Positions 9,788 to 51,935 are shown, counted from the whole stretch's first letter. The stretch: DNA of 63,700 nucleotides, filler included, from Dugesia japonica (GCA_001938525.1; 6 parts of 6 records of this genome joined end to end with filler, not necessarily neighbours in it); one strand, 5' to 3'. Translations and numbers: made by a program. Notes: a model not told the origin generated them from the letters alone.

Positions 9788-12093
9788 ATAAATAGTCAAT
9801 AATGATCATTCTTTAGAAAAACGATCAATTACTTCAGCAATTTTGCAAGCGCACAACGGTCCAATATTTTCGTTATTTATTACCGAAGCTGGATCACTTC
9901 TTACAGGTGGTGGAAAGGATCATGCTATTTTTGAATGGGACTTATCAAAAAAAGAAAAATCTGGTAGAAATATACAATTGACCAATGAACATGGATTTTG
10001 CAGAACAATTTCGGAGGTGAATGATAAATTGGTGGTTGGAACAACAAATAACGCTATTATAGAGGTTGATAATTTTTTTTCATTCAATATCTTGAATTCT
10101 ATATTCTTTTTTTAGGTAACTGGAAATGATGAATTCATTAATTTACTTAACGGCCATTCTGATGAGGTGTGGGCTATTGACAGCCATCCTTCAAAGGAGC
10201 AATTTATAACGGGTGGTCATGATCGTAAACTAATTTTGTGGGATGCTTTGACTCATACTGTTCTATTGTCGAAACAGTTTGAGAAAAATATCCAATCCGT
10301 TTCGTTAAACCCAACAGCTGATTTTGTAGCAGTAGGATGTATTGAAGGTCACTGGTATGTGTGCGATATAAATGAATTCAAAGAGATTCATCAAGGTAAA
10401 GATGGTAACGAACCAATTCAAAGTATTGAATTTAGCCCAGGTTTTTTTATTTGTGAAATAAACATTCTTAAACATTTACCATTGTTACTTTTAGATGGGT
10501 CTCATCTTGCAGTAGGATCAAGAGACAATTTCATCTACATTTATAAAGTAAGTCATGAAACTAACGAAGTTTCCAAAGTAGGAAAATGTTCCGGTCACTC
10601 TAGTTTTATTACACACTTGGATTGGTCTACTGATGGATTGTATTTGAGAAGCAATTCAGGTGATTATGAACTTCTTTTTTGGAACATACCAGAGTGCAAA
10701 CAATTAACAGCTGCAAGTACACTGTCAGATGTTAAATGGCATTCTGCAAATTGCACATTAACTTTTGAAGTAGCTGGAATTTGGCCAGAAGGTTCTGATG
10801 GAACTGATATCAATGCTGTAACTAAAGCACACAGTAAATTAATCCTCGCTACAGCAGATGACTTCGGAAAAGTTAATCTTTACCGTTATCCAGCATGTAA
10901 TCCAAAAGTAAAAATTTTATTCATTTCAAAAATTGATTTTGAGAATTGCGCCTTCAATTTAAAAATGTCAATAATTTAATAGAAAAAATAGACGAGAGAT
11001 TGTTTGGGGAATTTTCTAGTAAATTTTTTTTGTTCTTTATGAAATTATTGTTAGGTGGGTCTGTGATTCATGCAATATTTATTAAAAATAAAAATATTTA
11101 ATTTTGAAAATTTTTCATTAAAAAATTTTTCAAATTTTAATTAAATAATTATTATTTTACTAATTATTTATGTAAATTTTTTTTTCATGTTTTTTTATTT
11201 ATTTTGAAATAAAATTTTATTATAAAATTTATTAAAACAATTATAAAATTATAAAAACTTTTTTTAATATTGAAAATATTTTTTTCGAAATAATTTTTTA
11301 TATTTAAATCTTTTTTATTTTTTATCTTAAAATTTTACATATTATAAAATTAAACTTCATTTGAATATTTTAAATTCAAATTATTTTAAATAAACTTATT
11401 TTTTAATGTTTAAAAATATCAAAGCTGAAATCTTATAAAAATTTAGCTATGCAATTAATATTTTTTATCTATGTTTATAAAAAGTAAAATATTTACAATT
11501 TGTCTGAATAGTTAATGATGTATATTTGTAAAAATTTTTTAAAAAAATATTAATATTTCTCTAAAATGTTAGATTCTGTGAATTAAATGACAAAATAATA
11601 AGTATAATTTCAAATCTTACATCCAGTAATTTATTAGCTATGAATTGATGAGAACATCTAATGTCTAAATCTAATTAAAATTGGTTGTTCGTATTACAAT
11701 ACTCGAATATAGGTCATAAAACGAATTTTTAGCAATTGTAATAATTGAATTTATTTCTTGCTGAATTAAATACGATTGGAGATTTTTCTTGTAATTATAG
11801 AATAGATCAACGCGATTCACTATGATTCGAGAAATTAAAGATTTAGTTAATTATTTTGATATTAATATTTAATATTATTTTTTAAAAATGTATAAATTTA
11901 CTGGTTAATGAATTTTAAATTTATTTACTTTTTTTAAACTATTCGTTTAAATATTTATTAATTTTAGACAGCCCATAAGATATACAAAGGTCATAGCAGT
12001 CATGTAACTGGCGTGAAGTTTCTTGTTGAAGATCATCGACTTATGAGCGCTGGAGGTCAAGACACAGCAATAGTTCAATGGGCTCTTACTTGA
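1864..12093 (+). CDS. EML: Echinoderm microtubule-associated protein-like (EML/EMAP) gene, HELP + WD40 TAPE domain; 5' exons lie outside the window
   Basis: Manually spliced exons ~1864-1889, 2560-2689, 2932-3081, 3130-3202, 3247-3348, 9143-9238, 9281-9415, 9459-9558, 9817-10064, 10115-10440, 10495-10907, 11968-12093, with GT-AG boundaries and many introns of ~42-54 nt. They encode FIKGRP, LRMEWVYGYRGKDCRKNL, HPDKVTFATGQVAG, GHSSFITHLDWS, SNSGDYELLFW, WPEGSDGTDINAV and GHSSHVT, all hallmark EML motifs. Confidence 0.95.
2690..2931 (+). other. U12-type (minor spliceosome) GT-AG intron in EML
   Basis: 5' site GTATCCTTTT at 2690. Branch TCCTTGAC at 2910-2917 with the A 15 nt from the AG at 2930-2931. 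Splicing restores EWV-YGY. Confidence 0.92.
4640..4745. repeat. Short ~15-bp tandem/inverted repeats (aaagyccacatggat), resembling the subterminal repeats of a DNA transposon
   Basis: Four direct units followed by reverse-complement units (gtgtgggcttt). Confidence 0.5.
5321..6364 (-). mobile_element. Degenerate mariner inside the large EML intron
   Basis: TIRs tattacgttggtaaataagtttcc / gggaacttatttaccaatctaata. The minus strand encodes LQHPP*SPDLASSDFY (YSPDL motif). Confidence 0.88.
9604..9787. repeat. (TTA/AAT)n microsatellite (others at ~17719-17780 and ~26850-27025)
   Basis: Direct trinucleotide runs, partly N. Confidence 0.95.
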
Positions 12094-13407: not shown

Positions 13408-14130
13408 AAAATATTACGAATTTTTTATGTATTCATTATTTCTGAAAATTTGATCTAAAGAAGACAATTCGTCAAATAATAGGAAATTAAGACGTGTGCT
13501 TTAAAGAGTAATGACATATTTATATAGTCAAACTAAAATAAATAATTGTCAATGTTAAATATTAAAAATATCGATTGTTAAACTTTGGACTTAAGGAAAT
13601 TCAACATTTCATACTTAATGGCCTAATATTTGTTAGTATTAGAAATTTATCATTGTTTTTCGTTTTATCTTTATTATAATTATTAAATAACAGTGTAACC
13701 TTGGATTTTAAGCACACATAATTAAATTAGTTTTTTTTACTTTTAATAGATAACATGATTTTTTTTAATCATTTCGATGTAAAATTCGTTTATGATCAGA
13801 ATAAATGAGCTTCTGTTACTCGAATTTCTTAATTTATTAAAGTCACAAGTATTAATTGATTTCTATTTATTTGAATTTTAATATTAACAGTTTGATGTGT
13901 TTTGAAAAATAATAAACAACACCCCGAAATGTACTGCAAGCCTTAAATACATCAAACAAGACAATAAAAGAACAGAAAACTGTCAGAATTTAGATAAGTA
14001 TTCTCTCATTTCCTCGTACAAACCTTTTTCTCTTATTTCAATTTATTACTGTTAGTAAATGTAACGCAAGATTTCAGTACAAGTATAAATTTTTAAAAAT
14101 CTCATCTAAAACTATACTTTTACAAATGCA

Positions 14131-14254
14131 ATTATTGTGGGAATAATTGTTGGACTTAACCATTGATTGAATTTGAGATTTCATTAAAATAAAGAAAAAG
14201 CTTCGATCCAAATAATATTTTGATCGAAGCTTTTTCTTTATTTTAATGAAATCT
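14131..14254. repeat. Dispersed fold-back repeat, probably a Penelope-like pseudo-LTR (copies at ~24060-24210, 48735-48792, 49376-49519)
   Basis: Shared tgtg(g/a)gaataattgttggacttaacc...gagatttcattaaaataa sequence. Perfect 33-bp inverted repeat at 14176-14208 / 14222-14254. The 24060 copy carries a hammerhead core. Confidence 0.75.
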
Positions 14255-14557: not shown

Positions 14558-17500
14558 ATGTTACCAATAAATGGCGATTCTTATTCGGAAGGGTCTGTAT
14601 GCTTAAATGCTAATATAGAGTCAGCATTGAACACAGATTCAATAACAGACCGATTAATGCCTGAGATTTTTTGTAAACAGAATGATGTTGAAAAATTCAT
14701 TCGTAAAAGTGAGATGTACTTTGAGGTGAAAGATATATCGAATAAAAGGGAGCAGGAAAGGCTGGTCATCTGTCTAATTGATGAATAACTATTGGCTAAA
14801 TATGTTGAAACATTTGGTAAAATAGAAGGTTTCCAAGGACGATTAAGACGTGCCTTTAGTAAAGAAAGAAATGTCATTCGAGACATGAAAGACATGATAG
14901 ATTACAGGAGAAAAGACGAGGATATCGATAATTATATGAAGAAAGTAGAAGATTTCGTGGAAAAACTCTTTGCAAATAAGGAATTCTCAAAGGAAAAGTT
15001 GACAGCTAAGTTGCTGGTACAATGTGTAGGAAATAAAAGAGTAGAAGAATAAGTAATTTTACGTAAGATACAAAAAGTTGAAGAAATCANAGAGACTTTG
15101 AAACTTTTAGATAAAGTGAGAAATAATGAAGACACAGATAATATTATGAGTTTTGCAGCAGCTGTGAAAAGAGATAGAGAGACAAATAGAGGTCCTGAAA
15201 CGAGATGACCCGAAATACAAAATCTTGAAATGCAACAAAGGGTAATACCAAAATTTGGAAACGAACAAGTGGATAGACATAGAAATTGGAAAACGACGTT
15301 GGTGTGTTGGAATTGCAATAAAGTCGGTCACATGAGATGGGAATGCTCATTTAATTCAAGGATCAAGTGTTGGATATGTGAACGAGTTGGTCACACAAGC
15401 AGAAGATGCCGAAAGAAACAACCTATTCAGTGTTTTCAATGCGGAGGAAATTGGGGAGTAAACAATTGGAGGAATGCGAGATGAAATTGCGGTGTGCAAA
15501 TAACAGCACGTTGGAAAAAATGGGGAAAGTAAGATTGAATGTACATGTTGGTAACAAGAAAGAACGAATTGTTTTCATGGTGGGAAAACCAGTAGTTCCA
15601 GAAATAATTAGAGGTATGGAATTTTTGAATATTTTCAGATTTCGCTTAGAGCAAAGTGAAGAAGAGAGACTAGAGTTCAAAGGGAAAAAGTATATTTGTA
15701 ATATGGAGTCGAAATTTGTAAAACAAATTGATCTGGGTGAACGTTGGGACAAGGCAAAGGGTGCCATAGATTAGGGAGATGACAAGTGGTTGATTGAAAT
15801 AAGTAGATTGAGGGGAGAGGTTTTAATTTCGAATAAATGAGATGGGCAAAACATTTAATTAAACATACAATCAATACAAAAGGGGGTCCGATTAATGTAA
15901 AGTCATACTGACAACCGATGAATTTTGAGGATAAAATGGATGAAGCAATTAGAAATCTTTTTGAAAACAATATTATTAGGAGATTTAATTCGCCATGGAA
16001 TACTCCTATGGCGTGTGTGTTTAAAAATGACAAAAACGATATTAGGTTATGTTTGGACTTTAGAAGATTGAACGAAATTACAGAGAGACAGGCATTTCCT
16101 ATGCCAAATGTGGAAGAAATTTTGGACACTTTGAATAATGCAATTTATTTTAGCTCGATAGACCTTGGGAATGCATATTATCAGGAGGAGTTGGATAAAC
16201 AATTGCAGGATAAAACCGCATTTTCCACAAAGCAAGGATAATACTGCTTCAAGAAAATGCCGTTTGGGGTAGCTGCAGCCCCAAGAACATTTCAGGAGAT
16301 GATAAATGAAGTAATCACGGGATTTCGTGGAGCAATGGTATATTTGGACGATATTTTGATTTTCTCTAAATCAAAGGAAAAGCATTATCAGGCTAGTGGC
16401 CAGGTGTTGGATAGGATTTTATCAGCAGGTTTGAGGATCAATCCCGACAAATGTACATTTATGAAGGAGGAAATTAAATTTTTGGGTCATATAATCAGCA
16501 AGGAGGGAATTCAAACAGACCCAATAAAAATAGAGGACATTAGATCCTATGGAAAACCTAAGTGCGTAATAAAAATGCTCAGTTTTTTAGGAATATGTAA
16601 TTATTATAGAAAATTCATTAAAAACTATGCGACTAAGGGGAGTAAGCTTGAACAACTATGTAGTGGACCTTGTAAAACTAAATTAATATGGTTATCTGAG
16701 CTGACAGAAATTTTCAAAGGATTGAAGACTGTACTTACATCGGCTCCGATTTTAGGATTTCCAGATTTGAAAAGAGAGTTTATTCTGGATACTAATGCGA
16801 GTTTCAACTCAATCGGAGCAGTATTATCACAAGTGGATAGACATGGGAAAGAAAAGGTAATTGCATATGGATCCCATGCAATGACATCTCATAAATTAGG
16901 ATACTGCATAACTAAGAAAGAATTGTTAGCAGTATACTATTTTGCTTACATTTTAAACTCTACTTGTACGAGAGACGTTTCACTTTGAGAACAGATCATA
17001 AGCGATTACTTTTATGTTAAACACGAAGAAACCAGTAACGAGTCAATTTCAAACATGGATTTTTTTTCTTAGTAGCTTAGATATTAACCTAGAATACATA
17101 AAGGGGATATTACATAGAAACGCGGATGCTTTGAGCAGACTAGTGTGTGATAGATGTACACAATGTCAAACGGAGAACGAGGGAGTCAAGATAGAGAAAC
17201 CAAGAACTAGACTGATTTAACGGAACGATATTTTAGAAATTAAAATGGATGACGGAAATACGAGTAAATTAGTAAGAGAAGGGACGAAAATTTGGTTAAC
17301 AAGCGGCAAAAGAGACAAACAAATCGTAAAAATCATTAGATTTTTGTGTCACGCAGGTGTAGACAAGACAACAGATTATATTTTGGCACGATATGAAGGA
17401 AATTTCTTGAAGGATGAGATAAGTGAATTAGTTCAAACATGTAAATGGTGTCAAAAGTCAAAGACAAATACAGAGGGGGTGAAAGAAAAGACAATCTGGT

Positions 17501-17568
17501 CTGAAGACTTTGAATCATTCGAAGTGGTTTTTGTAGATGTTTGTGGACCGTTGAAGGAAACAACATAA
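14558..17568 (+). mobile_element. Ty3/gypsy LTR retrotransposon, degenerate gag-pro-RT-RNaseH-IN, 3' truncated
   Basis: CCHC knuckles (CWNCNKVGHMRWEC), SPWNTP, LCLDFRRLN, MPFG, YLDD, FILDTNAS, HRNADALSR and integrase CHAG...CKWCQK. Multiple stops and frameshifts. Confidence 0.95.
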
Positions 17569-24067: not shown

Positions 24068-24101
24068 GTTCCTGAAGAAGACTATTTTCGAAAATTTGAA
24101 C
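24068..24101 (+). ncRNA. Hammerhead ribozyme, slightly degenerate, at the start of a dispersed-repeat copy
   Basis: gttc-CTGAAGA-agactattttc-GAAA-attt-gaac, followed by AATAAA. Confidence 0.6.
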
Positions 24102-24209
24102 CGTTTTACAAATAAATTTTATTCTGATCGAAGCTATTTCTTATTTTAATGAAATCTCAAATGCGATCAAAGGTTAAGTCCAACAATTATTCTCACAATA
24201 ATTGTAATT

Positions 24210-26830
24210 ATAAAATCCTTTTCATGATCATTTAAATTACGAGATGCATAAGCAATAACAGTTTCTACACCATTTCTTGAAAATTGACTCAAAACAGCAC
24301 TAATTGCATTGAAACTCGCGTCTATATCTAATATCATTTTATTTTGAGGATTTGGAAATGCCAAGATTGGAGAACTACATAATTTTTCTTTCAGTAGTTT
24401 AAAACTGCTGTCACATGCTTCAGTTCACTCTACGACTTCTTTTGATTCAGTAATTGCTGCATATAATGGACTGGCAATTGTTGCGTAATCTTAAATAAAT
24501 CTACAATAATAATTTGTTAATCACAAGAAGGTTTGAATTTGGGTTGCACATTTTGGAATAACAGCTTCTTTTGCTTTATTAATAATGTCATAATTTGTTT
24601 CAACACCTTTAAAACTTATTGTATGACCAAGAAATTTGAGTTTTGAAACACTTAATTTACATTTTTCAGGATTAATTTTTAGATCAGATTGTTCAATTAA
24701 TTCCAACACATTTTGTAAATGTTTATCATGAATTTCTTAATGTCTGAAAATGTCATCAAGATAAACGATCACTCCACTAAATAACATCTTCTAAAAAATG
24801 TTATGTATAAATTCTTTAAATGTTGCAGGAGCGATGCATAATTCAAACGGCATGCGATTGAAACAAAATTGTCCCATTTTTGTGCTGAAAGCTGTTTTTA
24901 ATTTTAACTTTTCAGTTAATTCAATTTAATAATATTCCTCTCCTAGATCAATTGATGAAAAAAGAAGAGCCATTTAATGTTTCCAATAACATATTTATAT
25001 CTGGAACAAGAAATGAATATTTTTCAGTTACCGAATTCAATTTCCTAAAATCAAGGCACATTCTTAGAGAACTATCTTTTTTTGGAACAATCACTAATGG
25101 AGAATTCCATGGACAAGGTTTTATAACATTTGCTGGTAACAGATTTTGTATTAATTCTTCGATCTTGCCTTCTAAGTGCATTGGTTGTCTGCTTGGATTT
25201 ATCAATACTGGTTCTCCTTTAGTTTCTATGTTATGCATTGTCATATTTGTTAACCCTACATCAGATTTTGAATTCATAAATATGTGCTCATATTTATGAA
25301 GTAATTCAATTATTCTATTGCTGGCATTTAGCCTGAGTGCATTCATTTTTTTATTATCAAGTTTGTTATTTTTGCATATAACATCTTTTGAATCTATGAA
25401 ATTGATCTCTTTTATTCCCATTCCAAACGNNNNNNNNNNNNNNNNNNNNNNNNNNNNNNNNNNNNNNNNNNNNNNNNNNNNNNNNNNNNNNNNNNNNNNN
25501 NNNNNNNNNNNNNNNNNNNNNNNTAATTCTAGCTTTTCCTATGCATTTTTCACTTTTCTCAGAAAATACTCAGAAAATTGAATTTTAGGTGAACCAATCT
25601 TCTTCCAAATTTCCTCACTTATCACTGAGACAGACACTTTAGAATTCCATAACATCTCTACAATAATTCAATTACAATTTACACTGCTCCAATTTATATC
25701 ATCACGTTTTTGATACATAAGTTTAACATCCGGTCTCCTATCAATATCTCGATTTTTCTCTTTAAAATTCATTAATGCAACCTCACCGACTAGATGAACA
25801 CAGCGGGTTGCTAAACATTTTTTCATTATTTTCTTAGATATTTATTGTATCATGTTCAAAATCAATTAAGGAGTCACCTATTAAAAACCTATTTTTGAAA
25901 GAACAGTTTATTCTTCTGTGGTTTGTTTCTCCACAGCAAAATCAAGCACCATGCTGTAGGAATTCTAGTCTTGAAGGAGCTTTACAATAACATCTATTAT
26001 AAATTTATGTTGCTACATATTTCAGAGAATGTTTTGGAAATTCTAGTTTTTGTTCTTCATTTATATCTTTTAATTGTTGCATATTATTACCAATCCTTGA
26101 ATCTTTTCTCGGTTTTCTAGAAATTGTAGAATATTTTGGAGTATTTTCTTTGTGATGAAATCTGTAATTATTTCCCATTTTATTAAATTTTGATTAAAAA
26201 GCTGATCTCTTGACTGCACTTGCATAGCTGTCGTTGACAACATTTACATTACTTTTTGCTACAAATTTATCAACGTTTGCAGCCGATTCTCGACGTTTTT
26301 CGTCATTTATTTTTGGTTGGAGTGCAAAGGATTCTTTAAGTTTCTCACTTCTTAAGCCATTCAGAATAAAAACTCTTGATATTTCCTCTGGTGATCTTTT
26401 GCTTTCAAATATCTCGTGAAAAAGCTTTTTTATACTTATTTCAAAATTCCGATATTTTTTATCAATTCTTAGTTTAACTAATGATAGATCTGTTATTTTG
26501 TCAACCAAAGATTTATCATTAATTAATGTTCATCGAAACCAAGTTTCACACTTTTTATTTGAATTGAAATCCTCGTTTGTGTTTGTTTCTTGACACAATT
26601 TCTTCGTATCGCCTCGTAATAGCATGTCAAATACAAAAGAAATCCCCATTTGATTAAATATAGCAAATTCTTCTACATCCAATCTTTTGCAGTGTCTGAA
26701 TAACCATCAAAGAATTTAGGCTTCGGAATCAGCATTTCTTGCGTAGCTTGTAAAATATTTTTAAAAATCTTTTGTCGTTCTTCTTTCCTTTGCCTAGTAA
26801 ATGGCACTAACTTCTGCATGGTCGCCAGTT
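24210..26830 (-). mobile_element. Ty3/gypsy element (second family), degenerate gag-pro-RT-RNaseH
   Basis: PBS-like TGGCGACC at ~26820-26827, PWNSPLVIVPKK, MCLDFRKLN, VYLDD and ILDIDASFNAISAVLSQ. Confidence 0.9.
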
Positions 26831-27877: not shown

Positions 27878-30800
27878 TGTTAGGTAAATTTTCAATTGGT
27901 AATTCATTTTGCAAATCATTACTAATATTTTGAGACATCATTTATTTTATTACTACAAACTATGTTTTATAATATAAATAATATCAAAATACAAGCATTT
28001 CAATATTAATATTCAGATAACTCAATTTCTATTAGTGAAATTATAATTTAATAATTATTTCCTCATATCCCCCTTTTTAAGAAACTTCCTAAGTATTCCA
28101 TATGTCTTTCTAATCGCTGTCCATTTTCTACTTGTACTCGCTTGTACCGCCTTTCATGAATTTTCTCAATTATTCGGTAAGGTCCTTCAAATTTGTCTTG
28201 ACTTTTATTTCTAGTTTCTACTTTGATAAGTACTAAATCGCCCACTTTGAATTCTATTTTAGTTATCTCGTCAGAAATGTTTTTTTAGTTATATCTGAAA
28301 CGTCTGACTCGTATCACTTTTCTCCGCAAATTTTCTTTCCAAAAACAATCTTTCTCTTTCCAGTCGTCTTATGTTTTGTTGCGTTCATTGTAAATTCTAT
28401 TTCCCGGTAAAAGACCTGCCAAATCTGTTGTCTTTCTTTACTGAAGTGTTGTATTAATAAAATCTCGAATTGTCCTGAACTGTCTCTCAATTTCTCTATT
28501 TTCATTATAATGATAGGGACTCGAAAAGCAAAGTTTAATATCTAACTTCAGTGCAAACTCTCTCATAACTCTGGATTCAAAAGCTTTTCCACAATCTAAT
28601 CTTATCTCTCTTGGACATCCAAATCTCAGTATCCACTTTTCGAAAGTAGCTTTTCATATTGTTTCTTCGTCTTGTCTAGGCAATAGTATAAGAACCAGAT
28701 ATTTACTGTACTGGTTGATTATTCCATNAATATATTTTTTTCGTCCACTTGTTTCCCGCATTGTCCCATATATATCTGTGAATATCATCTCAAATAAATT
28801 GGTAGCTTCTAAACTCTTTGTCTTTAGTTGCTGTTGTTACTACTTTGGTGTTCTGACAAATTTCACAACTACGAAATATCTTCTGTATTTGGCTCCACAA
28901 GTTCTTTGCAATATATTTGTTTCTCATAATTTCGTGCACCTTTTCAACGTTTGCATGACATAATAATTTATGTATTTCTTATATTGTTTTATGTACTTTG
29001 TCATCCGGAATTTTCATTTTCTTGATCAAATATGTTTCCTCCGAAATATTTAAATTTTCTACTTTTTCCTTTTCAATCATGTTTAGTATTCTCATTTTAA
29101 TCTTCCTTTTCTTGGCAACTTCATGCGACATTTGAAACCTCAAATCTTGGTCTAGATAAGATATCTGCATTACTATGTTGAATTCCTTTTCTATATTCCA
29201 AAACCANGTGTAAACTGCTCAGATAATTAATCCATGTCTAGAATTGTGATATAATTGCTTTCTTCGTCGTCATCATGAAAGTTAGAGCTTTGTAATTTAT
29301 TCTAAGAGTAAATCTTCTACCGTGCAAGTAATGTTTGAAATGCATCTAGAAATAATAAACAGCCAATAACTCCTCTCGTATAATGCAGTATCCCTTTTCA
29401 TAACTTGTCAATGAGTGTGATCCATAGGCAACAACTCTTTCTCTTCCTACTTTATTTCTCTGTGAATATACTGCTCCAATCGTATGAAAACTGGCATCTG
29501 TATCTAATATAAATTCTTTGTTTATGTCTGGAAAACACAATATTGGTGCAGTCATTAGAGATCTCTTCAGACCCTTAAAGGTATCATTTATTTCATCTGT
29601 CTTTTGATTTCCTTTCGTAGTTTTCTATAAACTTTCTGTAATAATGACAAATCGCAAAAAACTTCGTAACTTCTTCGCACAGTTAGGTTTGCCAAATATT
29701 CTTATAGCTTCTATTTTAGACGGATCAGTTTTAACACCATCTCTGCTAACTATGTGTCCAAGAAACGTGATATCACTTTGAAGAAACTGAAGCTTTTCCG
29801 GAATTATTCTTAGACTAGCCTTCATTATTTCCATCAATAATCTTTCAATTACTTCACAGTATTGATTTTTATTGTTGGAAAATATCAGGATGTCATCAAG
29901 ATAAACCATGATTCCATTGATTCTACTACTTGTGTCATGATCTCTTGAAATATATCTCCTACCGCTGCAATGCCAATTGGCATTCTATTAAAACAACATT
30001 GTCCGTGGTTCGTAGAAAATGCCGTTTTTTCTTGAGATTCTTCTTTTAGCACCACCTGATAATATGCATTTCCAAAATCTATTGAACTGAAATATTTAGC
30101 TTCATCTAAGTTGTCCAGCATTTCATCGACATTAGGCATCAGAAAGGCTTGTCCTTTCGTTACTGCATTCAACTGTCTGAAATCCAAACATATTCTTATG
30201 TATTTCTTTTCCTTTTTCTAAACACAGATCAATGGAGTATTCCATGGAGAGTTGCATTTCCGGATAATATTATTCTCAAAAAGGTTTTGGATAGCTTCTT
30301 CAATTTTAGATTCTAAGTTCATTGGTGCCTATACGGTTTTCAATTGATTGGTTCACCACTTGTGATTATTTTATGTCTTGTCAGATGTATGCGTCCTACA
30401 TCCAAATAATCTCACATAAAAGCATCTTCTTTACTTTCAATTATTTTCAATAACCATTGATCCTCTTTAATCTTCAAAATATTTAAAACTCTTGTCAATC
30501 ACTCACCTTGTTTTTATTTGTTTTCCGAATTTTGCTTCAATATTGCAAATATAATTTTCGACTTTTTCATCCCTTTTGCCATCAACCTTTTGCATAAGCT
30601 GGTATCCAAAATTTTTCTCCATATCTATTCCTCCTATCAGATCTGATGTCACTCTTTCAGCCACTAAGAAAGTAATCTATTTGCAAACGTCATCAGTTAT
30701 CAGTTACGGCTCTAACTTTTCCAACAATTTCAAGTGTACTATTATTTGCGAAACGCAATCTTTCATCACTCTTTTCTAAATTTACTCGTAATTTATTAAA

Positions 30801-32924: not shown

Positions 32925-35900
32925 ATCAATGACAGCAATCCAATTTAAAATTGAATTTAATGAAGAGACGTTTAGCGGTGATATAGAAAATTGAATAAAT
33001 TTTTGTTTAACTATGAGATCTATACCAAAGTCTGCGAGTGGAACTAAGTAGAAAAGATGACTAGAATATTATGTTATTTGTCAGGAGCTGCAAAAGAATT
33101 GTATTGGGTCAAAACTCAACACATAGATCAGGCTCTAAAGGCTTGGAAGGAGGCTAAAAAAATTTTGTTAGACAATTTTAATAGCGAAATATAACCAGAT
33201 CAAAACTTTTGGAGGTTTACAAATAAACAACGAGCAGATGGAGAGTCTTATCAAGCTCATCTATGTGGGGTAAGACTGCTGGGTCGTCTTGCATTGGACA
33301 CCAGCTTGACTGATAAAATTGTAATGGATAGTTTTATCAATAATATAAACAAACCAAAAGTAAAGAATTGGGTAAGAATTAAACAGCCAAAGTCCGCAGA
33401 TGAAACATTGCAGTTGGCATTAGTAGCAGAACAAGTACAAAAAGATGATTGTAATCAATTGATGGATAAATTAGTTTATGCAACAGTCAATGGCCAATCT
33501 CAGGAAAAAGATGGCAAACTGCTGACATAAAAATATGAGAGTAAAAGAGATGTTGAGTTAAAAGATATAACGTCAGAACAATTACAAACATTGCAAATTA
33601 GAGCACAGCAAATGATTAAATGTAAAATATGTCGAAGTAGCACGCATACTATAGATAATTGTAGAACTATGTATTTGAGTTGGGATAGGTGTGGAGCCAA
33701 AGAACATACAACGAAAATGTGCTACAGTAAAATTTACTCACATGAAGCAGTGGTAACATTAGTAAATAAACGGACTGCATCACGCGAAAAAGTACGATGT
33801 AGAAAATGTTGAAGGAGTACGCACACAACCAGTCATTGTCAAGTTAAGTATATTTATTGTGGCCGATGCGGTGCAAAGGGTCATGTATAAAATAACTGAA
33901 GAAGTAAATTGAGTTGCAAATACAACGCGGAACCGATAGTGATTGATTTATTAAAAGTTAAAACAATTAAGTCAAATCAAAAAGGATTAAAGCAAAAATC
34001 AGATATAAACCATGATTGGGAGAAAAGTAGTTATGCAGCGTGCGTTGATTTGGATATTCAATGTGATAGTGATTAACAACTTGAAGAGAAAGAGGAGTTA
34101 GAGAAGCGTTATTTGTATACCAAACAATTCCGGGAGAGAAAAGATAGTCGATACGTTAAGAGAATAAATGAGACATTGGAGAGAGACGAAATATGTGATT
34201 CAAGTAATTTTTAGAAAACAAAACAAATAAAACAAAGAACCAAAGATCTCAATAAAAATTTTGCAAATATCAAATGACAATCAAGTAATCGAGCCGTAGC
34301 AAATTTATCTACAGGAAGAAGTATCGGGTCAAGACTAACAGTCAAGATTTCTGTAGACGGACTAATGATGGTAGCATTCATTGACACTGGAGCAGCGATA
34401 TCAGTTGTGTATTGTATCAAACTCAAATATCGACGTAGTATTGAGACAAAAACCAAGTTATTAGCAGTGGGAGTACATGACCAGCCAGGCAAATTGAAAG
34501 GAAAGGCGAAATGTCGAATAAGCTATGGTAACAGGACTGTAGAACAACAAATTTCGATAATTGAAACGAATAAAGATTTTTTTATGGGGACGGATCTAAT
34601 ACCCAAGTTGTTGTCAGATTTTGCGCTAGAGTTCAAGTCACTACGTTTTAAATCAACCGAAAAAGAAACGATTATAACATGCAACGGGAATAATTGTGGA
34701 GAATATGAAAAACGTGGCAAGAACAAAAGGATAGTAGAAAGAATGCAGATCAATATGCTACAGGTAAGCCAATAGGGAAAAAGTAAATTGTTATTGCATC
34801 CAATCTCATCTGACAAAGATAATGAGACGATTAGGCAAGTATTTGAATTACAAACGACGATGGAAGAAAAAAATAATAAAGAGGAAAATAATTTGTTATT
34901 AGATGTCGCCGAAGTGCTAATAGCGTTTAATGAAGTTAAACCAAGTTTCGATAGGTTACATCAAACTTTGCTGGAGAAATTGATCACAGATCGAGGAAAG
35001 CAGTTGATAGAATTGGATATTTAGCCATTTAAGATAAAGATATATGTGGAACAGCAAGTAACCCGTCATGTACGAGTACATAAAACAAATCGATGGTGCG
35101 ACATTGCGGAAAGAGTCAGATGCATAATAAATATGGTTGGAAAAAACCTGTATTTCGGCATGATAGAATAGAAGATGATTCGATAGAGCCTGTGTTGTTA
35201 AATGTATTATTGAGTAACTCTAAGATGGGTCTATATGTTAAAACCAAACAAGATCATATCCAGATTGGTGGAAAAGCTGAGAATCTCCAAAAGAAAGTTA
35301 AACATATTTGGAAGTGAGTGAAAAACAATATAGAGTTGGCATTTCACCAGGAAGTACTGCAAGTGATAAACAAGGAACAAAGGCAGCAAATGGAAAGCAC
35401 GGAAGCAATCCATAAAAGGAATGAGAACAATTTGATCGAAAAAACCAGAAAAGAAGGGAAGTTAGATTATGAAATACAAATTTTAGTAAACATTATACAG
35501 AGGACTACAAAGAATTTGCAAGAAATCACAAGCGCATCTCATTATCATTTGGCACAGCAAATTAAGGACGAAAAACGAGCAGATTTGGAAAGAGGATTTC
35601 GTGGTTTTAAGAAACAAAGAAAGGCAACTGATATGATTATTACGCTTTTCCTGTCATTGTGGAAGATGTGAACAGATGATGAAAATATTACTAGAGCGAG
35701 TAGCAAATTAGCATCTCCGATAGAACCTCCAGAACATCGACAGTTATCGTTGTGTCAATATTGTGGAAGAAGTAGATGTTGGTGGTTAAAGATTTGTTTC
35801 AGATGTCAAGCAAAAGGACACGTCTGGAAGAATTGTCTGGTAGGAAATAGACCAAGCACTATAAGTGAAAATCCACAGGTAAACAGATGTAACTCTAGAG

Positions 35901-42849: not shown

Positions 42850-43166
42850 AACCTTGACTTACTTTCATTTAACCTTGGCCTACATTTACTCGACCTCGAA
42901 ATATTACATCAATCAGAACTGAGTTAACTAAATCAATCTGACCTTGAATTATTTCAGCCAATGAGAATAAAGTATACTAGAACACTGACCTAGAAAAATT
43001 TGACCTTAAGATTTTCCACCAATGAAAACCAAGTATACTAGATCACTGCCCTTAAAAATTCGACCTTGAATTATTTTAGCCAATCAGAATCGAGTATACT
43101 AGATCACTGACCTTGAAAAAATTTTCTTCTCGGCGGGGGGGTTGATCCAGTGCGCTACTATCTACT
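42850..43166. repeat. Candidate Polinton/Maverick terminal repeat
   Basis: Ends CCAGTGCGCTACTATCTACT (reverse complement AGTAGATAGTAG). Three to four ~60-bp subterminal repeats with TGACCTT and CCAAT. Confidence 0.55.
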
Positions 43167-44115
43167 GACCTGTTATGCGGGTTAAAAAAGTTAGAATGTT
43201 ATTTGAGATTAATAACGTATCTGGGAATAAAATGTTGTGTGACATTGATAAAATATTTGAACGGAGAATAGGTTAAGTGAGCTGATTACACGTTGGGAGC
43301 TCGATTATGATCTTTGGGAATTATATAATGAGAAGAGATCTGCTTTAATAGTCCTTAGTGAAATGTTCCTTTCTTGGTTGATGTAGTATGGTGTCTTATA
43401 ATTTAATTTTGTTTATTTTAAACCTGATAATAAACTTATTAAGATCATATGATATTTTAATTAATTTTGTTTAAAGTAAATAATCATTATCATTTTATCA
43501 ATTGGGCGGTTGTCCTCTTGCCCCAAGCTAGTACATTTTAAACTGATAAATCATTTTTCTTCAAAAAATTTTCAAACCAGCAATTATTTCCGATAAAGTT
43601 ATTTATTGGGAGATATGGCAATTTTAATTTCTTTTTCGCATAGCGTATTAAAAGTAACCAGTCATTCGTGGGTATTAAGCGCAGTAGTTACCTTAAGCTC
43701 TTTTTCTAGCTCTAGAAAGAATGCTGTTCTCTCATACCTCATTCGGAATGTTGTTGATTTGTTTCCTACTATACATATCTTATTTTCCTGTTTTCCCAAT
43801 TCCATAACATCTTGCTGGTTCTACCACAATTTCTTGCTGTTTTACTAACATTTTTGTTATTTTATTTTAAAAGTTCAAATGTCTCGAGGTTTTCATTTGT
43901 ACTTAATTACTTTCAATTCATGGGATAAAAGTATAGAAATATAAAATCCACAAAATTAATAAATCTATAAACCTTTAAATGTTTTAAAGTAATTATAGAC
44001 CTACAAAATACAAACNNNNNNNNNNNNNNNNNNNNNNNNNNNNNNNNNNNNNNNNNNNNTTAATTAATTAANNNNNNNNNNNNNNNNNNNNNNNNNNNNN
44101 NNNNNNNNNNNNNNN

Positions 44116-47100
44116 AATATACTATCAGTATTTTTTATTATTAGTGGAAATCCACAATTAAATGATCCATCTTCAGTTTCAATATCATACACATCTTCAA
44201 TACCTTCTCTTAAATATTCAGTTTTTTGTACATTAGTTTTTAGATTTGATTTTATTTGTGTTGCAACATAATCTGAATATTTTATTGTAATAGCTAAATT
44301 AATTCCTAAAGATGTTACTAAATAATACAATTGTGAAAAACATTTTTTATCATTTTCTTTAAAACTAATTGTTTTAGATTTTTTATTTCCATTCATTAAA
44401 TAGTAACCTACAAAGAACCAATATCTNNNNNNNNNNNNNNNNNNNNNNNNNNNNNNNNNNNNNNNNNNNNNNNNNNNNNNNNNNNNNNNNNNNNNNNNNN
44501 NNNNNNNNNNNNNNNNNNNNNNNNNNNNNNNNNNNNTTGATTGAACTATATCATAAAATTCAGAATTATAAACTTGTTCATAATATTTTTTTATTTTCTT
44601 TAATAAATATAAATCATTAATATAAATTGCTTTAGGATATTTTCTAGATATTCCATCTATAAATGCTTTCTTTGATTTTCTACCTCTAGGTTCTTTATCA
44701 CTTAAAATTTGTTCAATATTTATTTCATTATTTTGTTTAAATATTTTATTGTGAAGTAATTTAGTTTTAGTTGTTACATCTATAGGTTTTATATGTTCAC
44801 CTTTATCATTTAACAGTGAATGATCTTGTGTGACATCTACAATTCCCATTGTAGTTATTACTCTATAAATCTTTTTATTTGTTGTGTGTTTAATTACTTT
44901 CTTTAATTTTACCCAATTACTTTTAGTCCAAATTTCATAATCATCTGGAAAAGAATAATATTTATCATCATAATTATAATAATAAGGTTTTGAGATTTCA
45001 GATATCTTTTTAATTATTACTTTAATATTTTTTCTTAAAATTATTGGAGTGTCAGCTGTTACACTATCACTGTAATGTATTTTATAATTATCATTTCCAA
45101 TTAATGGATCCATTTGATTGTATANAAAATCATACATTACTTGTTTAGCATGTTCAAGTATTGTGAATCCAATATATGGAAATTTGTTATATTTTAATTT
45201 ACCTTTTTCCATGTTCATTGCTGCAACTTCTGCTTCATTTGAATCATTTATTATAAAAATTTTACTTGATTTAAAAGTTGTTTTACTAGCAAAATTTAGA
45301 TAATCTTTTTCATTGTCAACTATTTCTATGTTACACCTATTTCTAATATTTTCTAATGTTTTACCATAGAATGCATTTAACATTAGTTTATAAATGTAAT
45401 CACTAAACACATCATTTATTCTTTTTGATTCTTTTCTTAGAGTTATTAATTTGTGAACATGATTTTTAAACCATGTAGAGGTTGGCATTTTAATTTTTCT
45501 ATGTATTGTTATTAGTTTCATGCCAAGTTTTAAATAGAGATCTAATGTTGATCCTAAACATACATAGTTTTTCTTGTNNNNNNNNNNNNNNNNNNNNNNN
45601 NNNNNNNNNNNNNNNNNNNNNNNNNNNNNNNTTAATTGGTAATTGCTTAACATCTCAGGTCTAATATTTATTCTGTCTGGTGCTAATGGGAAATATTTAG
45701 TTTTGTTATGAATTTCTGGTGGATAATCAAGATCAACTTCATAAATATAATTAATGTTATCATTTGAAATTTGATATGTTAAATCTGTCATCTCATATAA
45801 TTCACCTGTAGGTAATGGTCTAGTCATACATGATGCATATGATGAATTTTCATCTAAATATTTTATAAATGTATCTTCTAATAAATTTTCAATATAATCA
45901 TTTGGAATAAATGTATGAGTGCTCATCATTTTTATTAATTCTTCATTCATTTGTTTTGTATATGGGTCTTTATTTTTATTATATGAAAATACTTGACGTT
46001 CACCACATACACCAGAATATCCACCTCTAATACCTTCTTCAATTAATAAGAAAATGTCATGTTTCAGCTTTAGCATATTTCAATTTAATATTAGCATTTA
46101 ACATTCCTGTTTCCAATGCATAACCTGGTGCTGAATAAGAATAACTTGGATCTAATTTTAAAATATTATTTAGACATGAATCTCTAAAGTTTTCTAAGAA
46201 ATCAGTTAGAATTAAAACATCTAACTTCATATTATGTAACATGTAACACCACATATTTTCATAATTGCATATATCATTCATAAATGTTTCATATTCTTCG
46301 TTAGATATTTCTTTTTGGGTTAATGTGTTAAAGAAATCATCTTTTGTTGGAATTTGATTTGATTTTAATAATGTTTCAACTTCTTGAATATTTTCACCTT
46401 TTACATATTCATAAGGAAATAATGCTTTTTTAGGTGATAAATAAAATGAATTTAATATTGGATAATTATTAGATTGAGTTAAAAATTTACCCATTACTTC
46501 TACAGATGTAAATGGAAGTAATCTAGCTGAGTCTAAAAATTTAATATTTTTAAATTCNNNNNNNNNNNNNNNNNNNNNNNNNNNNNNNNNNNNNNNNNNN
46601 NNNNNNNNNNNNNNNNNNNNNNNNNNNNNNNNNNNNNNNNNNNNNNNNNNNNNNNNNNNNNNNNNNNNNNTAAAATGGAATAAATAAATTTTTAATTGAT
46701 AAATCATTTTCATTACAGGTGTTACATGCCCAACCTCTAAATTCACCATTAAAATGGTTATGATCTTTAACTCGATTATCTATTAATCTGTTACAATAAT
46801 AACATTTAGTGTCAAATGTATATTCTGGATGATTTATACCTGAATATGTTTTAAATAGTTTGTTATCTTTTATTTCATTTAATTCATTATTAACTTCTTC
46901 TAAAAATTAAAAGAATTCATCATAAATATTTTCACTTAAGAATTCATAATATTTACTTTTTAATAATTGTGGATAATCAGATTTTCAATAAACACCTAAA
47001 GATAAAGCTTTTTGTTTTTTAGTAATAGAATTTGTATATGTTTCAAAATCACCAAATAATATAAATGGTATTTTATTTTTCTGGTAAAATTTATTAAATG

Positions 47101-48373
47101 AATAATAATCTTTATATTCAAAAGTAATGTTATTGGGTTTATGCCTGATACATGCATCTTGATGTTTTAATAAAACCGCTTCGCTTGAGTAACAATTCAT
47201 ACATCTGATGCATGGATAATTTGTGTTTCTACTTGATGATGTAAAAAATACAGTAATAAAAATACATAAAATAAAGTGATCTTTATATACTAATAAGTTA
47301 CATTTATTTTCTTGATGTGATGGATTTCTTGTATAATGAGAAATGTGTAATGGCTCAAGTTTTTTATTATCATTAACACCAAACACATTAATTTCTAAAT
47401 TGTTTAATTTTTCAAATTTACTTATATCACTAATTTTCATTGGAAATTCAAAATCACTATAATTTAAATCTGATAAATGTGGAATGTAATTGCTAACATG
47501 TGTAGGATTATTATTTAAATATTTATGTGATAAAATTGAATATAAAAAACATTTATTATCTTTATTTTCTATATTGATAACTCCAGGTTTTTTAAATGGT
47601 AATTTAATATATGTCGCACCTGCTAATGATTTATATTTAGAAAGATCTAATGTATAATCTATAATGTGCGACATTGACCATCCACTTCCTTCTCTATCTT
47701 TATCTTCTATATATTTTTCTAATTCATTAAATATTTCATTGGTACCATTTTTTATTTCACTTTTCATTATAATTCTTTTATTTATTGAATAAGATGTAAA
47801 ATCTCTTTCTTTATATTCAATATTTATTTCTTTTATATATCTACATTTTACACCCATACTTACAATTATCTGTTTAGCAAAATTAAAATATTTAGTAATA
47901 ATTTCTTTGACATCACTTTTAAATGCGTTAACATTTCTAATAGGGATGCTATATAATTCTTCTACATTATATTTCATTTCTACTTTTACATCTTTTAAAT
48001 ATTTAATTTCACAATCTTTGTAAATTTTAAAAATATCTCTAATTTCATGTTTTATATTAATTTCTTCTTTTTCTTTTAATTTATCAAGTAACATTTTTTT
48101 ATGTCTATCTGAATTATAATGTTTTCTTGCATGATTTTGTCTTAAAAATCGTTTGTTGCAAATTTCACAGAATAATGCAACATTTTCATGATTACCACAT
48201 TTTGCTGCATTTAAATGTTCTTGTAATGCATTTTCTGAATTGAATTTTTTTCTAAATGTTAAACATTGAAATTCATCATTTACCTTATAACAAATTTTTG
48301 ATCTTACATGACCTTTTAGCCCAGCTAAATTCTTAAACTCTTTATTACAATTATTACATTTAAAAGTACTCAT
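44116..48373 (-). pseudogene. Polinton/adintovirus-type protein-primed family B DNA polymerase (zinc fingers, OTU-like region, exonuclease with EndoVII/HNH insert, polymerase), intein-containing, truncated by the contig end
   Basis: EGSGW, GATYIKLP..VINIENKDNKCFLYSIL, ExoI GDFET, CYYC..KDHNHFNGEFRGWACNTCN, FLDS, FPYEY, GIRGG, motif A YLDENSSY, motif B YKLMLNAFYGK and motif C YSD/TDS. In-frame stops at 46985 and ~46907 and a frameshift at ~46065. Confidence 0.92.
44130..45065 (-). mobile_element. Intein in pPolB motif C (YSD|TDS)
   Basis: In-frame 312-codon insert (110 N inside). Block A SVTADTPII, block B VDVTQDHSLL, block F VYDIETEDGSF, block G PLIIKN followed by +1 Thr. Removing it restores HYSDTDSI. 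Confidence 0.92.
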
Positions 48374-49659
48374 TTTCTATAGGAATAATTTAATCTTATG
48401 AAGTTTTTTTTCCTCTTTAATTTTTATATTATTCCTCTTAAATGTTATCATGTTTGTATTTTCTACAGAATAAATTTGAAACATGTCACTTTGTATATTT
48501 TTGATATGTCACTTTGTGTATTTTACATTTTCCATTNGATATTTTACATTTTACATTTTTACATTAGGTACGGTAATATTACCCTTAGGTTAATTCGTAC
48601 TTATTCTATTACTTAAAAAATAGATGATGATGAAAAATAATTAAAATACATCATATCTGCAACATTACTAATTCTTTAAATTTAATTTTTATTTTTATTT
48701 AACTTTTATTGGGTGATATAAATAATTTTACAATTACAATTATTGCGGGAATAATAGTTGGACTTATTCATTGATCGTATTTGACATTTCATGAAGAGGA
48801 CAATAGTTGAACAAAACCGATTATCTTTAAAACAACAATTTTATTTGATTGAAGTCTTTATTTCAATAATATAAACAATACTTATAGACATAATCATTTA
48901 ATTAATAAATACATGCTACCGTTTAACAACCAGAATTCTTTTATTTTTAAAAGATATTACATAGTTGAATTTACAATTCAGAGTTTATCTTCATCATTAA
49001 GTGTTTGTAATATTAAACTAAGAATAATAATGCATTGTTTTTTCCTATTGATAATGTATGGCTATCTATACAAAAAAGTACAATACAAGAAACAAATAAA
49101 CAGGTCACGATATAATTTAATAATAATAAAATGTGCTACATCTTTTAAATAATGTGTTATTTAAATAAATAACATAAGATGTGAGTTGTCAATTGAAATA
49201 TACGATAATTAGACAGATTGTGTGGGTTTTAAACATATATAAATACATGTTGAAAACAATACAGATAAATGATTTTTATAAAAAATTTTTAAAATTAAAT
49301 TTATGATTGAAAGATAGTTTTCAGCAAAATCATTTGATATATATTCATAGATATTATTAAGTATTCTTAATATAATTACAGTTATTGTGAGAATAATTGT
49401 TGGACTTAACCATTGATCGCATTTGAGATTTCATTAAAATAAAGAAAAAAAATAAAATGTATTTGTAAAGTGTCGAAAATTTGAATTTGTTTACAAATGA
49501 ATTTTTTTTGATTGAAGCTTTTTCTTTATTTTAATGAAAGTATTCTTAAGTTTTTATTTTATCTGATAGATTCTTCGGTTGGTGTTTTATGTTTAGTAAT
49601 CCAGACCATAAATAATAATCAAAAGGGAAATAAAAAATAATAACAAATATATAATAATT

Positions 49660-50987: not shown

Positions 50988-51935
50988 AAGTTTTAGCGTT
51001 TCGTTCTTGGTCGTTGTCTTCAACTTTTTCGAAATCCATTAAAAGTATTGAACATTTATTAAAGTTACTGCAAGCAAATGGTTATAGTAAACAATTTAAT
51101 AAATTCATTGACTTAGCGGACAATCGATAAAATCTTTTTTCTAATAATATTGATAAATAAAAAGATTAAAACTGTATTGCATAATTATGAACTTGGTAAC
51201 ACTTTGTAAAACTTTGTTAGGCCATTTATTTTATCGATTCCTTATTCTGAAAGTTTAAAAAAGTTTTTGTATTCGATTCTGAAAGCTGTTAAGGATCTTT
51301 TTTAATTGAAAATAGTTTCTACTTCAAATAAGATTGTTCATAGCTTTATTAATAAATTCCATAAACCACGTGATTTGTGTTCTAGCATTATTTATCAATT
51401 TAAATGTAAAATGCCTGATGTCATATGCATTAAAGAGACTGCCAGTCATCTCTGTACAAGGGCTCAAGAGCACAATCGTTTTATTAATGTTAATAATATT
51501 ATCGAGCATAAATATAAAACAAATTTTAATGCGAATGTTGATATTTCAAATTTAAAAATTATTTGGAGAGATTGTTGTATGAAGCATTAATGATTAGATT
51601 TCATAATTCTAGCATTAATTTACAGACAGCTCATTCGACTAAATTAATTAAAAATTTTTAGATTGAAATTTGAATTTTTTAAAAGTTTCATAGATTTTTT
51701 TGATAGGTTTGTAATTTTTAAATAAAATTTCAAAAAATAAATTTGACAATTATGTTTTTTATAATAGATTTTATATTTCAATACTTTCTATATTTGAAAA
51801 AAATATGAATATTTTTTATAGACATATACCATTTAGTATAATTGGTTAGCTTAAATAGTACAGACTGAATAATCTCAAAATTTTCATTTTGTCTGATGAT
51901 GTCGGTTGATCCTTTGAAATATATTACAATAAAAT
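50988..51935 (+). mobile_element. Penelope-like element 3' remnant (GIY-YIG) with a downstream degenerate hammerhead
   Basis: LLQANGYS, SIPY, SSIIYQFKC..IKETASHLCTRAQEH and YEALMI. CTGATGA..GAAATATATT at 51893-51925, then AATAAA. Confidence 0.75.

Follow-up and report, generated by a model that had tools for sequence, protein, structure and literature searches.

In the DNA analysed here, an intein interrupts the catalytic motif of a protein-primed DNA polymerase (pPolB) of Polinton type. The window, as we call the whole stretch of 63,700 nucleotides, consists of six contigs joined by 100-base separators, and contigs next to each other in it are not necessarily adjacent in the genome. The insert, located on the minus strand at 44130-45065, is confirmed as a real intein. 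Its allele (pol-c) is already known as a type; the kind of host gene is new and the kind of host genome probably so. We consider it quite probable that this is a Ser1/Thr+1 intein in the pPolB active site which belongs to a single branch of pPolB inteins, likely derived from giant viruses and likely spread by homing. A wider reading, towards which we lean only slightly, is that of a Polinton-specific intein lineage of giant-virus origin, native to and mobile in animal nuclei, which would home between copies and polymerase classes and make replication depend on splicing.

The insert is an intein at the pol-c site

The 936 nt of the insert correspond to 312 codons on the minus strand, with Ser1 starting from 45065 and the terminal Asn312 reaching 44130. 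It lies at the YxD|TDS (pol-c) site, with the extein residues HYSD before Ser1 and TDSI after Asn312. An earlier sequence-only reading of this DNA had given these coordinates, strand, flanks and junction residues (Ser1, Asn and Thr+1) exactly. The contig (44116-55317) stops 14 nt past the intein, its C-extein consisting of only four codons (Thr+1, Asp, Ser and Ile; 44118-44129, minus strand). A masked run of 110 N at 44427-44536 hides 37 intein codons; the remaining 275 contain no stop, and the sequenced part of the insert is thus stop-free as previously noted. Intein-free homologues carry YxD-TD or YxD-CD uninterrupted, and the insert, masked codons included, is in frame. Its closest kin are inserted at the same position (256 extractions from RNA-primed PolBs and nine from pPolBs at Y.D|TDS). 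That this site is occupied by inteins in RNA-primed PolBs had been pointed out before, and passages of PMC549080 indeed place those of Mimivirus and archaeal PolBs there. GC content (0.21 in the intein, 0.22-0.25 in the extein) provides no useful contrast.

Several searches bear out the identification as an intein. The NCBIfam model TIGR01445 (intein_Nterm) matches residues 2-85 of the insert with 24.6 bits, just over its cut-off of 24.5 (E 3.7e-5), and the best PDB sequence match, with E 4e-6, is the chain of the Nanoarchaeum split intein NEQ068. When scored against a profile of 60 RNA-primed-PolB inteins, with no pPolB intein among them, the insert reached 185.8 bits (E 1.2e-56), the best of 200 shuffled sequences 4.5 bits. 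Among the domain models that the sequence-only reading had proposed for searching, only the N-terminal one was recovered, by TIGR01445: Pfam gave no significant intein or LAGLIDADG match (E 0.09-0.14), and no intein C-terminal model of NCBIfam matched. An AlphaFold model of the insert was obtained with pLDDT 84.5 and pTM 0.85 from a 40-row alignment. The best PDB fold matches are the endonuclease-bearing inteins 7qsu, 7qst and 7qss (E 2.5e-10 to 2.4e-9, TM 0.60), among the best 39 fold-match ranks listed all rows with a name are intein structures, and PolB16 and Aes123 PolB1 are among the matches. As the model rests on an intein alignment, sequence match and fold match are not two independent lines of evidence. 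When full-length proteins were used for the PDB profile search, the extein signal dominated.

That the insert is an RNA intron or inert debris rather than a protein-splicing element is very improbable, and largely refuted by the sequence. The absence of a significant Pfam domain in the insert would fit such an origin; however, its borders on the coding strand are AG...AT and not GT...AG, it is a whole number of codons long and holds all key splicing residues, and both the profile match (E 1e-56) and the predicted fold are those of an intein.

Splicing residues are kept and the endonuclease is degenerate

The junction residues of a class 1 intein (Ser1, Asn312 and Thr+1) are all present in the insert. 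The N-terminal splicing (Hint) region (residues 1-108; 44742-45065, minus strand) includes Ser1, Lys59-His60, Thr79 and His82, the last two forming block B, and is identical at 64 of 105 positions to that of P0003, the pPolB intein protein most similar to the insert. S1, H60, D81 and H82 are invariant across 40 aligned rows. His60 aligns with His61 of NEQ068, so that Lys59-His60 stands opposite Lys60-His61, at the position of the NX motif; the NX histidine belongs to Ser1 inteins, according to the relevant passages of PMC10189870. The C-terminal splicing region (residues 278-312; 44130-44234, minus strand) is identical to P0003 at 28 of 35 positions and includes Asp294, which is the block F Asp (F:4), Asn303 (F:13), Lys311 and Asn312; here Y293, D294 and N312 are invariant across the 40 rows. 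Like many giant-virus relatives, the intein lacks His at both F:13 (Asn303) and G:6 (Lys311). The penultimate Lys had been regarded as unusual. It turns out to be the commonest residue of the group: among 264 RNA-primed-PolB inteins, extracted so as to admit only H, K, S, R, G or Q at this position, Lys occurs in 186, His in 71, Ser in six and Arg in one. We took the definitions and roles of class 1 residues from the part of PMC4031507 that deals with them, which also names inteins without His at G:6. The C-terminal motif GFPL is not specific to pPolB inteins, being present in many RNA-primed-PolB inteins. All key splicing residues are kept in the window intein, for which class 1 splicing is predicted.

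Residues 109-277 (44235-44741, minus strand; 44427-44536 masked) correspond, by alignment, to a degenerate LAGLIDADG region, as the sequence-only reading had proposed. Block C has suffered a 15-residue deletion and block E lacks its acidic residue; with neither catalytic motif intact, the window copy does not classify, by its predicted protein, as an active LAGLIDADG endonuclease. Both motifs are present in all 11 other pPolB intein proteins tested and in 147 of 196 full-length inteins of RNA-primed PolBs. Two contigs of sequencing run X2 cross the block C deletion without insertion, from which it follows that other copies share the deletion and that endonuclease decay predates some of the copying. 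In the DNA runs the two splicing regions are deeply covered and the endonuclease region thinly, which is a hint only, as summed contig depth does not equal copy number and the region is partly masked.

The host gene is a broken Beta-class polymerase

The N-extein core, which ends in HYSD, spans 45066-46079 on the minus strand (PF03175, E 5.2e-12). It is 28-34% identical to the pPolBs P0004, P0005, P0285 and P0290 and has no match to P0003 at E 1; taken together, the polymerase pieces of the window align with the same four proteins at 28-43%. Upstream in the gene and also on the minus strand are an exonuclease-side piece in another frame (46057-46557), an Endonuclease VII (HNH-type) insert that is not an intein (46671-46906; PF02945, E 3.4e-6) and an N-terminal part with C2H2 zinc fingers that terminates at an in-frame stop (46985-48373). 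The reading frame is broken by in-frame stops near 46985 and 46907, which agrees with the stops previously noticed in the N-terminal half of the polymerase, by a frameshift near 46060-46079 and by a frame change across the masked stretch 46558-46670. We assign the gene to the Beta class of Polinton/adintovirus pPolBs, an assignment made from the description of the classes in PMC8502044 and not from a reference sequence. With the endonuclease motifs lost and the polymerase broken, the window copy is, as judged from its reading frame, a decaying pseudogene. A list of its 24 best-supported differences from other copies, which is a biased one, comprises 20 non-synonymous, one stop-type and three synonymous changes; with 20 of 24 non-synonymous, the open frame of the intein is no evidence of present selection and fits neutral decay.

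On the 11.2-kb contig, which ends at the intein, no integrase, capsid, ATPase or protease gene and no terminal repeat was found, and none of eight ORFs there matches Pfam. The Polinton label consequently rests on the polymerase. Elsewhere on the contig, what we take by eye to be a Penelope GIY-YIG-like remnant (51306-51590, plus strand) and what is presumably a Tc1/IS630-type transposase-like remnant (52952-53700, plus strand) had no Pfam match. The segment 53902-55308 is strongly C-skewed and contains direct repeats (54283-54481 and 55108-55308, 71%; 53902-54017 and 54789-54907, 79%).

The polymerase family is multi-copy and likely resides in an animal genome

Parts of the stretch are contained in 16 of 24 listed sequencing runs, none of which is an RNA run, with at most 41% of the sampled words in any run. 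In three DNA runs labelled as organism A and belonging to three studies (2014, 2015 and 2025), about 41,000 contigs each aligned to 44116-49600, most of them 85-95% alike to it; these 5.5 kb contain a host repeat. A run labelled as organism B gave 3,801 contigs. When only the 1.2-kb intein stretch (44116-45330) was considered, 4,770 contigs of run X2 aligned, and the intein sites 44851 and 45025 were covered by 59-74 contigs in the three organism-A runs. These thousands of diverged contigs imply that the pPolB family is multi-copy and that the intein is present in many of the copies. The depth of the family in the DNA runs drops at about 48500. A very high-copy repeat of the host genome follows on the same contig at 49371-49539; blastn matches it at 85-91% to segments of two other contigs (14121-14199 and 24088-24212), in keeping with the earlier remark that repeat families are shared between contigs, and the summed depth in the bin 49240-49422 reaches 650,000-720,000 in the three runs. 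The flank 48820-49397 is identical in the three runs.

We conclude from the high multi-copy state in the DNA runs of three studies that the family is probably endogenous, and the genome is likely that of an animal. It is unlikely, to a marked degree, that the polymerase was instead co-assembled with the genome from a non-animal source, such as a protist symbiont, food or a free Polinton-like virus. Such a source would be consistent with the fact that none of the run contigs joins the polymerase to the unique flank, with the limit of 41% of words in any run, with an exact look-up of six proteins of the window that matched none of them, and with the location of some pPolB relatives on short metagenome contigs. 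It accounts poorly, on the other hand, for thousands of diverged contigs under one organism label in three studies and under a second label, for the stops and frameshifts in the polymerase, and for the host repeat and the invariant flank on the same contig. Integration had already been preferred to contamination from the sequence, and the multi-copy diverged family, the broken frame and the repeat on the contig argue for it.

The sequence-only reading had suggested looking for intein-bearing and intein-free copies. The former appear in many contigs; the latter may be represented by five RNA reads of run X18, one of three RNA runs, which fit the N-extein and depart from the window sequence exactly at 45065. 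These reads behave as an intein-free allele would at the N-terminal junction. No reads derived from the insert were found in the three RNA runs, of which 6-25% each was read. Reads matching 45008-45042 were set aside, the match being of 35 nt, less than 90% alike and with loose ends on both sides.

A lineage of pPolB inteins related to those of giant viruses

When the insert was compared with longer proteins, 536 matches were obtained. The three best, P0003 (40%), P0004 (34%) and P0005 (32%), are pPolBs that carry an intein with a LAGLIDADG domain, and the remainder of the 120 matches listed are almost all giant-virus-type polymerases (PF00136). Named giant-virus relatives among the matches are Saudi moumouvirus (P0106), Marseillevirus LCMAC201 (P0008) and Mimiviridae sp. 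ChoanoV1 (P0300). A search started from P0003 (902 matches, best 120 listed) added the pPolB inteins P0285 and P0290, and a motif scan yielded one viral and four metagenome loci, of which only L083 is a pPolB; its intein contains two stops. All seven pPolB inteins (window, P0003, P0004, P0005, P0285, P0290 and L083) are at the same site. A search of proteins represented at 50% (1476 matches) had no pPolB among the best 150 listed. Likewise, the loci search with the intein alignment gave no pPolB among the at least 79 loci kept of 527 matches (66 RNA-primed PolBs and 13 matching neither reference), and related-locus searches with P0005 (viral and metagenome) and P0285 (viral) found nothing.

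Trees place the pPolB inteins together. In a quick tree of 57 rows they occupy one side of a branch with support 100, window and P0003 pairing with 96. A mixture-model tree of 36 rows, from which 21 long or redundant rows had been dropped, unites all six pPolB inteins included (100/100; window and P0003 100/96), and a 22-row tree that includes L083, with 36 rows dropped, unites all seven (100/100; window and P0003 96/95). The trees are unrooted and have no outgroup. The pairing of the window intein with P0003 is favoured by these trees, not proven, and an AU test did not reject a clade restricted to Beta-class inteins (p 0.059). The P0003 intein, which resides in an Alpha-class polymerase, is 39-45% identical to the other pPolB inteins, whereas its extein reaches at best E 7e-4 against theirs and has no match to that of the window. 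Whichever pairing is right, similar inteins in exteins that barely align require transfer of the intein between the Alpha and Beta polymerase classes.

The kinship with giant-virus PolB inteins that had been claimed for the insert is upheld by both searches and trees. Separate phylogenies of intein and extein had been proposed; the intein trees give the pPolB branch at 100/100 and, being unrooted, carry no direction. We infer the direction from giant virus to Polinton from the wider spread of these inteins in RNA-primed PolBs (264 inteins, compared with seven pPolB lineages), and on this ground the pPolB inteins likely came from a giant-virus PolB. The single event envisaged by the sequence-only reading gives way to a lineage of seven pPolB inteins with present/absent alleles. 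A separate observation concerns P0067, P0168, P0179 and others, whose inteins belong to the same pol-c-like family, interrupt a D.D|TDG site and form one branch. The P0067 protein has type II topoisomerase domains, a case of non-allelic spread of pol-c-like inteins.

Signs of homing in a related family

The cluster of P0004 has 136 members, on contigs of up to 1 Mb. Among the 15 members listed, seven have the intein, six span the site without it and two do not reach it; identity among the N-exteins of the members that extend to the site is 95-99%. All ten fixed differences between intein-bearing and intein-free alleles fall between -7 and +44, that is, within 55 of 1191 extein columns. The nominal p for this clustering is 2e-14, a value to be read with caution, as the alleles are kin and the interval was set after seeing the data. 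Differences clustered in the flank are what homing with co-conversion predicts, although a similar pattern would arise if the intein had been lost through conversion or if selection acted close to the splice site. In L083, identity to P0004 is 68% over the intein, and identity to P0133 is 49% over the N-extein. Of the fixed sites compared by eye, the three closest to the insertion agree in L083 with the intein-bearing alleles, three others agree with the intein-free ones and two with neither, a mosaic that would lend homing weak support. The catalytic motif varies in the intein-free members P0129, P0131, P0132, P0133, P0135 and P0136 (YFDTDA, YGDTDA and YTDCDS), and such variants possibly represent escape from the endonuclease.

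A real intein that was inherited only, having entered an ancestral pPolB once and then descended vertically with repeated loss and no homing, appears unlikely to us. The single branch of pPolB inteins, the Beta-only clade left standing by the AU test and the loss of endonuclease motifs in the window copy would all suit it. It conflicts with inteins 39-45% identical in Alpha and Beta exteins that barely align, with present/absent alleles that are 95-99% identical and differ only in the flank, and with the retention of both endonuclease motifs in the 11 other pPolB intein proteins.

The reading we prefer, that of an intein spread by homing, can be put as a series of steps. The precursor would be translated with the intein parting the Asp from the Thr-Asp of the active site, and class 1 splicing would restore YSDTDS, on which polymerase activity should depend. 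Splicing would proceed by an acyl shift at Ser1 with the help of His60, Thr79 and His82, by transfer to Thr+1 with the help of Asp294, and by cyclisation of Asn312. Where the LAGLIDADG domain is intact, it would cleave pPolB alleles lacking the intein at the insertion site, and a copy with the intein, used as the repair template, would pass on the intein together with some flank; Polintons, being multi-copy, could supply empty alleles within one genome. The subfamily of the window would be at a later stage, with the endonuclease lost and the splicing residues kept. The lineage itself may have originated from a giant-virus PolB within a co-infected cell.

Comparison with known systems

The Mimivirus PolB intein, as described in passages of Ogata et al. 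(2005; PMC549080), is of the same type as that of the window: it is located at YGD|TDS (position III), has Ser1, a terminal Asn, Thr+1 and the Thr and His of block B, and contains a LAGLIDADG domain within about 350 aa. The window differs from it in that the host is a protein-primed Polinton-type polymerase (PF03175) instead of an RNA-primed one (PF00136), the endonuclease is degenerate and the setting is nuclear and multi-copy. The Nanoarchaeum equitans Pol intein (NEQ068; PDB 5oxw, 5oxx and 5oxz) shares position III, according to the same passages, but is split, archaeal and without endonuclease. Cysteine-less Ser1 inteins, in the sections of Pasch et al. (2023; PMC10189870) devoted to them, have the same Ser1/Thr+1 junctions and Lys-His at NX, whereas the window intein is contiguous, not split, and has non-junction cysteines. 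Inteins in viral-type DNA polymerases on nuclear scaffolds of eukaryotes are found in Gallot-Lavallee et al. (2023; PMC10710043), the hosts treated in its text being Klebsormidium, Tetrabaena and a labyrinthulomycete, which, unlike the likely host of the window, are not animals; the words 'polinton', 'animal' and 'metazoa' do not occur in its main text.

Nuclease inserts are known in the same polymerase. Parts of Jeong et al. (2023; PMC10748475) describe Polinton/adintovirus pPolBs with HNH and VSR nuclease inserts, and the window polymerase likewise has an EndoVII/HNH-type insert; those described there are bare nucleases without splicing domains, whereas the window has a full Hint domain in the active site. 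The Alpha and Beta pPolB classes are set out in portions of Starrett et al. (2021; PMC8502044), and the word 'intein' does not occur in the main text of either paper. Krupovic et al. (2024; PMC11071308) suggest, in a passage on these nuclease inserts, that they result from intein invasions. No description of an intein with splicing domains in the pPolB of a Polinton was found in a literature search of openly available main texts, and none in the excerpts of PMC12220804, PMC3671162, PMC10991399, PMC13768754 and 10.64898/2026.10.13.758929, in agreement with the earlier impression that the feature had not been described.

Inteins are stated to be absent from metazoan genomes in a section of the review PMC8529194, and the consulted part of PMC5784728, a survey of eukaryotic inteins, lists viral ones for no groups other than families of large DNA viruses and unclassified viruses. 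A likely animal genome with an intein in many copies would be an exception to this absence, by way of an endogenous virus. If the proposed origin holds, the intein would be a direct molecular trace of recombination between Polintons and giant viruses, at the active site of the polymerase, in a cell that both occupied; it is relevant to the question whether the Polintons of animals arose from parasites of large DNA viruses, and would give substance to the suggestion that intein invasions brought the nuclease inserts to pPolBs. With intein-bearing and intein-free alleles side by side in one multi-copy family, homing, co-conversion and the escape of target sites would become testable in a single eukaryotic genome. 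Planarian Polintons are reported, in a passage of PMC8532177, to be de-repressed upon smedwi-2 knockdown, and if the host is a planarian such a knockdown offers a route to the precursor and the spliced protein. Ser1/Thr+1 inteins are, moreover, of the type wanted in protein engineering.

Other features of the window

On the other contigs, exons of an EML1-like beta-propeller gene lie at 9843-10979 (plus strand), and broken pieces of LTR retrotransposons (reverse transcriptase, RNase H, integrase zinc finger and aspartyl protease) at 16242-17568 (plus), 29625-30217 (minus) and 34278-34775 (plus). An ORF of 121 aa at 62652-63017 (plus strand) has a weak baculovirus RING-like match (E 0.003) below the cut-off. 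At 42910-43172, on the contig placed next to that of the polymerase, an adjacency without meaning, a 61-nt unit containing a CCAAT box is repeated three to four times; the array lies immediately inward of a CTACTATCTACT end similar to a Polinton terminus.
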